NCBI GenBank assembly: GCA_029856125.1
Contig: JAHQWJ010000049.1
Coordinates: forward strand, 1-40,026
DNA from: Promethearchaeia archaeon
Lineage (GTDB): Archaea > Asgardarchaeota > Lokiarchaeia > Sigyniarchaeales > SOKP01
Reading direction: 5' to 3'
Length of the DNA: 40,026 nt
The notes under the pieces were generated by a model. That model saw only the letters and a program-made list of their open reading frames with translations. It made no database searches and was not told the DNA's origin. Below are positions 17,989 through 20,077 of the stretch, piece by piece. A program made the position numbers and the translations under genes. Position 1 is the first letter of the stretch. Every line of letters starts with the position of its first letter.

Positions 17989-18804
17989 CTAGCTTTTTGA
18001 GAATCCTCCATGATGGAATTCGATTTTATAAATAAGTTTCAACTTTTTGCAATAAGCATCTATTTCTGATTCAATAGAATCCCAAAGAGAATGATCATTC
18101 CTGAATTCTTTATATAAGGGTAAGATTTCAGGATATGTCTGTTTTATAACGTTTAAAATTCTTGGAACGTTATGAGGTCTGAAGTTCAAATTTTCAAACA
18201 TATAAGAATCTGTATAGTCCATCGTCTCTTCTATTATCGCTTTATAATTAGTAATTTTTGGAAAAAATGGCGAAATAAAAGTATATGTTTTAATTCCGTT
18301 CTCGTGTATTTCTTTTAAAGCCTCTAATCGCTCTTTTGGTCTTGAAGCCCCTCGTTCAATTAATTGCGCGAATTCGTTATCTAAGGTGCTGATTGAAATG
18401 CCCACTTCAAGATTCTCAAATTTCTTAAATAGATCAATGTCTCTCGTAACAAATTTAGATTTAGTCAAAACTGAGATTTCTGCTTTGGTCCCTATAAGTT
18501 TTTCAAGAATTTTCCGAGTATTTTTATACTTTAACTCTAAAGGAGTGTAGGGGTCAGTTACAGAGCTGAGTAATATTTTTTTTCCATTATATTTTTGTGG
18601 TTTAATTTTATCGAAGTCATAGGTTTTAACATCTAAGAATTCGCCCCATTTATCACCCTTATGTCCCGTAAAACGTATCATGAATTCAGCATAACAATAC
18701 ACACACCCATGTTGGCACCCAACATACGGATTAATGACAAAATCAATTATGGGGATGTTGCTCTTAGTTATTATGCTCTTAGCTTCTCGATAAGTGATAT
18801 TCAT
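17989..18804 (-). CDS. Radical SAM protein, spore-photoproduct-lyase-like family
   Basis: INPYVGCQHGCVYCYA (CxxxCxxC), SSVTDPY, LTKS, RDIDL. Confidence 0.9.
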   Translation of the reverse strand: MNITYREAKSIITKSNIPIIDFVINPYVGCQHGCVYCYAEFMIRFTGHKGDKWGEFLDVKTYDFDKIKPQKYNGKKILLSSVTDPYTPLELKYKNTRKILEKLIGTKAEISVLTKSKFVTRDIDLFKKFENLEVGISISTLDNEFAQLIERGASRPKERLEALKEIHENGIKTYTFISPFFPKITNYKAIIEETMDYTDSYMFENLNFRPHNVPRILNVIKQTYPEILPLYKEFRNDHSLWDSIESEIDAYCKKLKLIYKIEFHHGGFSKS

Positions 18805-18896
18805 ACTATTGCTATAGAATAATGTAAATTTAATTGAATATATTATTTCTTTTTTAAGATAAATCTATTAATATCCTTTAAATTAATATATTTTTT

Positions 18897-19091
18897 ATGC
18901 CATTGAAATTATTTGAAAATGATAGAACCAATAAAATCGTCCTCCTTATTATTCTAATAGCATTACTAACTGTTTCGGTTATATTGGTATCTATAGTCGT
19001 AATGTACTTAGTGTCTCTAGAAGAAACCGGAGGAGGATGACCGAGTACATGCAGTATCTACATAAATTTAATTTTAAGAACAATTTTATGA
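18897..19091 (+). CDS. Small single-TM protein: 47 aa if UGA at 19038 is a stop, 64-aa candidate selenoprotein if it is Sec
   Basis: MPLKLFENDRTNK-IVLLIILIALLTVSVILVSIVVMYLV-SLEETGGG-UGA-PSTCSIYINLILRTIL-UGA. SECIS-like hairpin immediately downstream. Absent from the ORF track. Confidence 0.6.
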
Positions 19092-19155
19092 AAAGAATGA
19101 CTTTTGCGAGAAAATCTTAGTCGCAAGATGACTGACCCTGCAAAGGTTCATAAAA
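19084..19155 (+). promoter_or_regulatory. SECIS-like / K-turn RNA structure
   Basis: Lower helix TTTTATGAA (19084-92) / TTCATAAAA (19147-55). Core ATGAC (19097-101) / TGAC (19129-32). Upper helix TTTTGCGA / TCGCAAGA. Loop GAAAATCTTAG. Side hairpin CCT-GCAA-AGG. Confidence 0.6.
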
Positions 19156-19273
19156 AAATAATGCTAACAATATCTTTAATAATATGTAGTATTTATTCTA
19201 CTAGTAATTAACAAAACTCTTATAAGTGTTTGAAACCTCTTAATTACACAAATTTGAATGACTGTACAGTATT

Positions 19274-20077
19274 ATGTCTAGCGAAACTCCCGATAATGTT
19301 AAAACTTCTTTACGTGCGATTGGATTAACAGATTATGAGATTTCAATATATCTCACTTTAATTTCTAAAGGACCTATGGATGCAAGAGAACTTTCTGACG
19401 CAAGTGGCGTTCCATATTCTCGAATTTATAATATTTTGACTCAATTAGAAAAGGAAAAAATGTTCATTCTAAGAGAAGAAAACACTCGTCCATCGACTTA
19501 TTTTGCAAAAAGTCCTGACGAAGTTCTAATTATCGCAAAGAAACACCTAACCGATAATTTTAATAACCACTCAAACAAAATCATCCACATGCTTAAACCT
19601 ATTTACGAATCTCATGACACTCCTATAAAAATTGCCTTATATGTTCACCGAGGACGTGATGTATGTATCAACCGCAGTATTGATCTAATCAATCGGGCTA
19701 AAAACTCTCTTTACTTTGTTGCTCCCTATTATGAGTTTTTAGATGTATTTTTTGACGATGTTAAGAAAGCAAGAGCGAGAGGTGTTATTGATATAAAAAT
19801 GCTTGTTGAAGAAGACGCAATGAAAGACAACAAATTTAAAGAAATTATCGAAAAATATAGTGAAATCTCTGAAATTCGCTCTCGCAATCAAGTATTTGGA
19901 GCAAGCGTAGTAATGGACGAAGGAGAAGATGCATTTATTATCCTGACTCAAGGTTTTTTCAAGGCATTAAGCTATTTCGGCGTAGCTACCGATCATATAG
20001 CCTTTGGACCCGCAAGCAACTTTTATTTTGATTATTTATATAAATCAGCAAAACCATTGAAAAGTAAGACGAAATAA
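19274..20077 (+). CDS. TrmB-family transcriptional regulator
   Basis: IGLTDYEISIYLTL, ARELSDASGVPYSRIYNILTQL, RPSTYFAKSP, followed by an effector domain. Confidence 0.92.
   Translation: MSSETPDNVKTSLRAIGLTDYEISIYLTLISKGPMDARELSDASGVPYSRIYNILTQLEKEKMFILREENTRPSTYFAKSPDEVLIIAKKHLTDNFNNHSNKIIHMLKPIYESHDTPIKIALYVHRGRDVCINRSIDLINRAKNSLYFVAPYYEFLDVFFDDVKKARARGVIDIKMLVEEDAMKDNKFKEIIEKYSEISEIRSRNQVFGASVVMDEGEDAFIILTQGFFKALSYFGVATDHIAFGPASNFYFDYLYKSAKPLKSKTK

Follow-up and report, generated by a model that had tools for sequence, protein, structure and literature searches.

We analyzed a 40,026-nt stretch of DNA from a Promethearchaeia archaeon (contig JAHQWJ010000049.1 of assembly GCA_029856125.1; this whole stretch is referred to below as the window), in which a 72-nt RNA on the forward strand, at positions 19084 to 19155, had been read in an initial annotation as a variant selenocysteine (Sec) insertion sequence (SECIS). 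This RNA is, in all likelihood, a Lokiarchaeal eukaryote-like type I SECIS that serves a probable small selenoprotein gene at positions 18897 to 19091. The SECIS reading of the initial annotation is borne out by a match to the published definition, by the score against an independent covariance model, by covarying homologues, and by an upstream open reading frame (ORF) with a conserved in-frame UGA. The RNA is a new member of a Lokiarchaeal class described in 2016, and taken alone it is therefore ordinary. The gene, judged from its sequence and those of its relatives, is likely a new archaeal selenoprotein family, a small membrane protein present in at least three genera of Lokiarchaeia.

The Lokiarchaeal SECIS ("lokiSECIS") was described by Mariotti et al. 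in 2016 as an AUGA before a 9-bp stem and a GA after it (AA in VhuU), with an 11-nt loop in which the first five bases favour A and the last base is a G preceded by an A (PMC4989117). The class corresponds to the Asgard eukaryote-like (eSECIS-like) type I model of Huang et al. 2024, which allows a stem of 7 to 15 bp with at most two mismatches (PMC11227280). The candidate satisfies every published feature: it possesses the AUGA, a stem of nine positions, an 11-nt A-rich loop closing in AG, and the GA. The helices, AUGA, apical loop, GA, CUGA, and side hairpin listed by the initial annotation were all found where it had placed them. The upper stem consists of 8 bp, one of them U·G, and a basal C·U, and the apical loop agrees both with the published description (PMC4989117) and with the SECIS consensus of the same genome, AAAAAnnAUAG. 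The candidate differs from other Lokiarchaeal SECIS in the first base of its loop, which is G rather than A, and in the basal C·U position of its stem; it differs from known Asgard SECIS in that its gene lies outside the seven reported selenoprotein families. With eukaryotic SECIS (Rfam SECIS_1 and others) it shares the AUGA/GA kink-turn (K-turn) core, unpaired adenines in the apical loop, the location in the 3' untranslated region, and a lower helix. In contrast to the eukaryotic elements, a hairpin branches from the 3' side of its internal loop, and its upper helix of nine positions is shorter, as the initial annotation had noted. A GAA/A bulge with a 3-bp G+C stem is absent from the candidate by inspection.

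A scan of the whole genome (3.69 Mb, 31% G+C, rated 99% complete) with the published geometry yielded a tight family of elements, most of which, once the upstream sequence was translated with TGA as Sec, proved to lie −1 to 22 nt past an ORF with an in-frame TGA, with one unexplained exception. Pfam assigned the upstream ORFs to AhpC/TSA (Prx-like), HdrA-type, and FlpD/VhuD proteins, and one element sits after a 50-residue VhuU-like ORF, itself located behind a hydrogenase large subunit gene. Six of these SECIS (Prx-like, HdrA, three VhuD, and VhuU) were used to build a covariance model, R1, from which the candidate was excluded. Because a MAFFT alignment of the paralogous SECIS with their flanks was misaligned at the variable side hairpin and at a copy with a 12-nt loop, R1 was limited to the core. 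The model scored the candidate at 43.6 bits, with an E value of 7.4e-8 in the 40-kb window, where the runner-up reached 15.7 bits. Genome-wide, the candidate was the top match outside the training set (E value, 6.8e-6; training members, 48 to 56 bits), and R1 gave only 12 matches at an E value of ≤1 in the 3.69 Mb; for eight of these the preceding gene is a Prx-like, HdrA, VhuD, or VhuU gene with an in-frame TGA. Similar elements were thus found behind bona fide selenoprotein genes of the same genome; the initial annotation had proposed to look behind selD, hdrA, and vhuD. An independent positive control for R1 is a SECIS left out of its training (contig C112:35050-35090, plus strand; 34.2 bits), preceded by a second Prx-like gene whose motif is W-U-S-H-C. 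A search with PF02662 for Sec-type VhuD in relatives returned only paralogues of the cysteine (Cys) type, and these loci were reused as a negative control; R1 gave zero matches at an E value of ≤0.1 in 99 kb around 30 such Cys-type FlpD genes. On five genomes of sister families or classes R1 gave one match, with 150 of about 6000 candidates scored per genome, so that absence from these genomes is not shown.

A DNA and protein search of 60 relatives recovered orthologous loci in most genomes of the genus, and 19 orthologous proteins (alignment A1) and 19 orthologous elements (alignment A2) were aligned. The covarying homologues for which the initial annotation had called were found, with compensatory changes both in the upper helix and at the closing pair of the K-turn. 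In the upper helix, compensatory changes affect four pairs: six sequences replace G-C by A-U, four replace C-G by U-A, one replaces A-U by G-C, and the basal position changes as well. The upper helix pairs in 91.8 to 93.5% of the alignment cells of A2, a figure that falls to 30 to 48% when the 3' partners are slid by one to three columns. The GA and the AUGA do not vary across the 19 orthologues, and the AUGA is equally unvarying in alignment A5. The minimum free energy (MFE) structure predicted by RNAfold for the isolated 72 nt is a different one (−15.5 kcal/mol; z-score, −2.55). Folding energy by itself thus fails to distinguish the SECIS fold, for which comparative evidence is required. Covariation among the orthologues rules the MFE fold out: at alignment columns 30 and 31 the SECIS pairing is preserved through G-C to A-U and C-G to U-A changes, whereas the pairing of the MFE fold is lost in six orthologues at column 30 and, at column 31, leaves a wobble or mismatch in five. 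The lower helix, which is A/U throughout apart from one G-C pair, is not supported as a conserved feature by the orthologue alignment, in which just 40% of its cells pair. The 9-bp lower helix described by the initial annotation is present in this genome, but a strict per-sequence search finds an adjacent lower helix of at least 4 bp in only 16 of 32 orthologous copies.

The small ORF upstream is unannotated; gene callers end it at the TGA at 19038 to 19040. When this codon is read through, the ORF encodes 64 residues and ends at a second UGA, at 19089 to 19091, 5 nt before the AUGA. The element starts 44 nt past the first UGA, and 59 nt separate that UGA from the AUGA, a spacing of 57 to 60 nt within the genus (51 nt in one copy) and of 43 to 121 nt elsewhere. 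Orthologues were found in 32 of 41 genomes of the genus, each with exactly one TGA inside the match. The pair of ORF and SECIS occurs in at least 30 related genomes from three genera, with its layout conserved in 31 loci. In A1, none of the 19 sequences departs from Gly46 or from the Sec column, and Gly45 and Gly47 are nearly invariant. The 19 genus orthologues have an open frame of 11 to 19 codons downstream of the UGA, and a Cys lies one to four residues past the Sec in 30 of 31 copies, which carry 11 variants of the motif. Twelve weaker matches from two other genera each have an R1 match of 24.6 to 48.7 bits just downstream on the same strand. Their products possess a basic N terminus, one hydrophobic helix, a glycine run, the Sec, and, in 11 of the 12, a Cys at +1 to +4 (UC, UxC, UxxC, or UxxxC); in nine a variable tail follows the motif, and three from one genus stop right after it. 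Substitutions before the UGA are distributed over the three codon positions as 224/84/279, a coding signature. Immediately upstream (18850 to 18896), this copy is about 20 nt shorter than most orthologues between a conserved AAATTAATATA box and the ATG, so that it either has a shorter 5' leader or uses a different TATA-like box.

The genome also encodes genes of Sec biosynthesis. SepSecS was found above its cutoff (351.7 bits), together with a full-length PSTK homologue (168.6 bits) and, on contig C32, a candidate for the Sec-specific elongation factor (EFSec), a GTPase whose best NCBIfam family is selB. The two top matches to TIGR00475 (selB) proved to be EF-1alpha and aIF2-gamma, and selB is the best family for the third match alone, the one on C32. 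Contig C24 (348 to 4400, minus strand; locus L071) carries two tandem selD genes with one in-frame TGA each, and each is followed by a type II SECIS with an AUGA, a 7-bp stem, an apical ministem, and a GA, in which a side hairpin (CCGUUGC...) lies inside the lower helix. TGA terminates 13% of the ORFs of at least 200 codons and is therefore an ordinary stop codon in this genome.

Several observations weigh against the assignment of the element and its ORF as a working SECIS and selenoprotein gene. Both the PSTK homologue and the EFSec candidate score under the curated NCBIfam cutoffs, and no tRNA(Sec) was found in the assembly with ARAGORN (with or without introns) or with Rfam RF01852. The RF01852 matches of about 30 bits were copies of tRNA-Leu; three near-identical 84-nt tRNA-Leu (UAG) genes lie within 5 kb on contig C84 (111342 to 116233, plus strand). 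ARAGORN finds only 17 tRNAs in the genome, and most tRNAs were probably missed, perhaps owing to introns, or are unassembled. Rfam gave no family at gathering scores and, at E values of ≤10 within positions 18800 to 19400, no SECIS or other relevant family; a failure of the Rfam SECIS models was likewise reported for the original Lokiarchaeal elements (PMC4989117). The spacing from UGA to SECIS is short, at 43 to 60 nt in two of the three genera. One of the 31 copies (locus L123) has a Gly instead of a Cys after the Sec. The tail past the UGA is poorly conserved in sequence, and its substitutions (47/59/61 by codon position) show no clear coding signature, so the tail is either weakly constrained or too short to tell.

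Table 1. Coordinates of the SECIS, the small ORF, and the neighbouring gene in the window
Feature	Position	Strand	Sequence or remark
Small ORF, codons 1 to 47	18897..19037	+	Basic N terminus, one membrane helix (about residues 14 to 40), then SLEETGGG
In-frame UGA, predicted Sec (residue 48)	19038..19040	+	TGA in 19 of 19 aligned orthologues and in 12 distant loci
Post-UGA extension and stop UGA (19089-19091)	19041..19091	+	PSTCSIYINLILRTIL; stop lies inside the 5' strand of the lower helix
Lower helix, 5' strand	19084..19092	+	UUUUAUGAA; 9 bp with 19147-19155; variable among orthologues
K-turn C-stem, bulged strand (A, G)	19094..19095	+	Probable pairs A19094 with U19133 and G19095 with C19132
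Bulge A-A-U, then G19099 and A19100 of the tandem sheared pairs	19096..19100	+	AUGA is 19097-19100
Upper (NC) helix, 5' strand	19101..19109	+	CUUUUGCGA; compensatory changes at four pairs
Apical loop, 11 nt	19110..19120	+	GAAAAUCUUAG; A-rich start, AG end
Upper helix, 3' strand	19121..19129	+	UCGCAAGAU; partner of 19101-19109
G19130 and A19131 of the tandem G·A pairs, then C-stem bases C19132 and U19133	19130..19133	+	
CUGA	19132..19135	+	In the copy of this genome
Side hairpin	19136..19146	+	CCCUGCAAAGG; can be drawn as CCU-GCAA-AGG (19137-19146) or in the register of the orthologues
Lower helix, 3' strand	19147..19155	+	UUCAUAAAA
TrmB-family regulator gene	19274..20077	+	Pfam PF01978 and PF11495; outside the SECIS unit

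The side hairpin had been regarded in the initial annotation as an unusual extra GNRA hairpin, a view that the comparison overturns, since such a hairpin is normal in this lineage. Each of the 12 type I SECIS of the genome has a hairpin of 4 to 6 bp that begins 1 to 4 nt past the GA, at the short C-stem or immediately beyond it, and that carries GC in its loop, and in 11 of the 12 an adjacent lower helix closes the structure. In a control of 20,000 random genomic sites the hairpin feature occurred at 2.5% and the closing lower helix at 0.6%, percentages that are indicative only because the hairpin criteria were set after the set had been viewed. The stems differ wholly between paralogues (ACCAUU/AAUGGU, AUAUGG/CCAUAU, GCCCC/GGGGU, and others), which looks like conservation of structure. 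Among the orthologous copies, 29 of 32 possess the side hairpin with a GC loop, and the remaining three have a hairpin with a CGUAC loop; in A2, 96 to 97% of its cells pair. The loop is mostly GCAA or GCGA within the genus (GNRA register), and in the other genera only the G-C-A is constant. The side hairpin is also seen in both selD type II elements and in an HdrA SECIS from another family of the class.

The core next to this hairpin has the features of a standard K-turn of the Kt-7 or box C/D type: a 3-nt bulge, tandem G·A/A·G pairs, and a covarying closing pair of the C-stem, from which a kinked three-dimensional fold is predicted. The −1b·−1n pair, formed by the base two positions before the AUGA and the base after the GA, is Watson-Crick in all 44 SECIS compared (G-C in 38, A-U in five, U-A in one), and the next C-stem pair is Watson-Crick or wobble in 35 of the 44. 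The bulge is [A/G/U]-A-U across these elements, and in the candidate A19094 and G19095, which the initial annotation had left in the internal loop, probably pair with U19133 and C19132, which would leave the textbook 3-nt bulge A-A-U. The constancy of the −1b·−1n pair indicates that the core is a textbook K-turn whose short C-stem opens into a three-way junction. Neither the side hairpin nor this Watson-Crick pair is mentioned in the text of Mariotti 2016 or Huang 2024. We also considered a k-junction, in which the non-bulged strand carries a third helix between A1n and the strand of the C-helix (PMC10573300). The candidate resembles a k-junction in having a third helix on the non-bulged strand near the K-turn, but the base directly after A1n, C19132, forms the covarying pair with G19095; the k-junction reading is therefore out, and the arrangement is that of an ordinary K-turn separated by two base pairs from a three-way junction.

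Readings other than a SECIS were also weighed. The initial annotation had offered an L7Ae-binding K-turn as an alternative. Its structural part stands, as the core is indeed a standard K-turn, and for this very reason it is no real competitor of the SECIS reading. The genome has only two L7Ae-family genes and thus no SBP2-like paralogue of L7Ae. A separate small RNA, of box C/D-like or other L7Ae-binding type and with no more than a resemblance to a SECIS, would possess such a core, and this copy does contain a CUGA (19132 to 19135) and an imperfect C-box-like AAGAUGA (19125 to 19131). However, the CUGA occurs in only one of 19 aligned orthologues, that of this genome, and the box C/D reading fails on this point: the other 18 have CUUG, CUUA, CUAA, CUUU, CUCA, or CCCA, and the GAUGA changes to GACGA or GAGGA. 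A conserved terminal C/D pair or guide region is absent, no Rfam snoRNA or other family matches even at an E value of ≤10, and the similar elements of the genome follow ORFs with an in-frame TGA at a distance of 0 to 22 nt, with the one unexplained exception mentioned above. We consider a small RNA of this kind highly improbable. An origin as a hairpin formed by chance in the AT-rich DNA between genes, or as some generic repeat or terminator, appears to have negligible probability. The low G+C content of the genome, the A/U-rich lower helix with its single G-C pair, and the modest MFE z-score would agree with such an origin, but a chance hairpin would account neither for the gap between the R1 score of the candidate and that of the next match in the window nor for the compensatory changes, nor for the rarity of R1 matches genome-wide and the position of eight of these 12 behind known selenoprotein genes.

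The neighbouring gene raises a different alternative. In each of the 20 genus loci the element is followed on its strand by a TrmB-family gene, and a role of the element as a leader RNA therefore had to be weighed: a regulatory RNA with a K-turn that is part of the 5' leader of this gene, or is coupled to the gene in some other way, with the small ORF ending at UGA 19038 to 19040 and encoding a 47-residue membrane peptide. Beyond this adjacency, the gene callers' end of the ORF at that UGA, the weak coding signature past it, and the conservation of DNA from the SECIS to about position 19256 in more distant genomes would fit this reading. Against it, the TrmB gene has no in-frame TGA, and the ORF-SECIS pairs at 12 loci from other genera have no TrmB gene within the fetched flank. 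In addition, the frame remains open past the UGA and reaches a Cys within four codons in 30 of 31 copies through 11 motif variants, and the element is indistinguishable from the SECIS of HdrA, VhuD, VhuU, and Prx-like genes. A leader RNA is accordingly unlikely, if less so than the small RNA considered above. The DNA between the SECIS and the start of TrmB (19156 to 19256) is 69 to 77% identical even where the small ORF can barely be aligned, and contains an inverted repeat, TAGTA-N7-TACTA (19187 to 19203), as well as a TTATAA box near 19218; this segment may be the promoter and operator of the TrmB gene.

The product of the small gene has no family in the resources searched. Pfam gave only transmembrane noise for the 19 members at an E value of ≤1, and database copies are either truncated at the UGA (45 to 52 residues, some of them N-extended) or read through with TGA as Trp. 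A collection of 5.8 billion proteins holds 47-residue truncated calls, one 61-residue N-extended copy, and two TGA=Trp read-throughs. A profile search of 1.84 billion representatives returned 17 proteins, 16 of which cease to match at profile position 47 or earlier, just before the Sec, and the seventeenth is a weak partial match inside a 233-residue protein; no homologue with Cys in place of Sec was found among these representatives. Having no known relatives and no Cys-for-Sec homologue, the gene was out of reach of homology-driven surveys. Huang et al. searched by known families and by Sec/TGA pairs and reported seven Asgard families (PMC11227280), and a 2026 review lists 11 archaeal selenoprotein families, none of which resembles this gene.

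AlphaFold2 applied to A1 predicts a helix at residues 9 to 44, a turn at 45 to 49 containing GGG-Sec-Pro, and a helix at 50 to 63 (mean pLDDT, 73.7). By the positive-inside rule, the N terminus would be cytoplasmic and the Sec turn external. SelK and SelS are small single-pass membrane selenoproteins of eukaryotes with a glycine-rich segment and a Sec near the C terminus. The product of the present gene is like them in layout only, being small and single-pass with a glycine run and a Sec near its C terminus, and no sequence relationship was detected; it differs from them in the Cys one to four residues past the Sec and, in most copies, in a hydrophobic C-terminal helix.

These features suggest how the unit might operate. 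Located in the 3' end of the mRNA of the gene at 18897 to 19091, the RNA would fold as a standard K-turn, with A94-U133 and G95-C132 as the C-stem, the A-A-U bulge, and the tandem G·A/A·G pairs; the NC arm of the K-turn would be the upper helix of nine positions, capped by the 11-nt A-rich loop. Beneath the short C-stem, the side hairpin with its GCA-containing loop and the variable lower helix would form the three-way junction. When a ribosome arrives at the UGA at 19038 to 19040, the element may recruit the Sec-specific elongation factor carrying Sec-tRNA(Sec), either directly or through an adaptor. Sec would then be inserted and 16 further codons translated as far as the UGA at 19089 to 19091, giving a 64-residue single-pass membrane protein. 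In this protein a Gly-Gly-Gly-Sec-x3-Cys motif would lie in the turn that links the membrane helix to a short C-terminal helix, and would probably give rise to a redox-active selenenylsulfide at the surface of the membrane.

A wider proposal, which we advance tentatively and regard as possible rather than probable, joins these points. The Lokiarchaeal SECIS would be a three-helix element whose conserved side hairpin, with its GCA loop beside the K-turn, docks a substitute for SBP2 (EFSec, L7Ae, or another protein). The gene served by the present copy would found a family of very small, membrane-anchored selenoproteins with a Gly-run-Sec-x(0-3)-Cys motif and a SelK/SelS-like layout, in the archaeal lineage closest to eukaryotes, and the Asgard selenoproteome would be substantially larger than seven families. 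Annotation pipelines cut the gene short at its UGA, and it is the SECIS that points to it. The side hairpin with its conserved loop and the covarying closing pair of the K-turn are concrete features for mutation and probing, and they bear on how UGA and SECIS communicate in archaea and on the origin of the SBP2-dependent system of eukaryotes.

A small covariance model of local SECIS also recovers further orphans, and SECIS-first searches may enlarge the Asgard selenoproteome. At least three more orphan SECIS are present in the genome, and an ORF carrying two UGA codons in a row precedes one of them. On contig C148 (27117 to 27158, minus strand) a SECIS-like element of 37.1 bits, with a side hairpin and a 9-bp lower helix, has no convincing ORF upstream; about 45 nt upstream of it lies a small zinc-ribbon-like frame with a TGA followed immediately by a TAA stop. 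The orphan SECIS of contig C8 (48095 to 48325, minus strand; locus L067:168-344, minus strand; 31.3 bits) lies 16 nt past a 59-codon ORF, in which codon 27 is a TGA and two segments are hydrophobic, and homologues of this ORF with the TGA were found in only two of 30 genomes of the genus. The remaining element, on contig C122 (12049 to 12393, minus strand; locus L062:174-458, minus strand; 38.6 bits), lies behind an ORF of 95 codons that has two in-frame TGA codons side by side (...IVHAD-U-U-ADNMR...) and no Pfam match. Of 30 genomes of the genus, 24 have homologues with exactly two TGA codons, there is a paralogue at C112:44042-44338, and this ORF may represent a Sec-Sec selenoprotein family.

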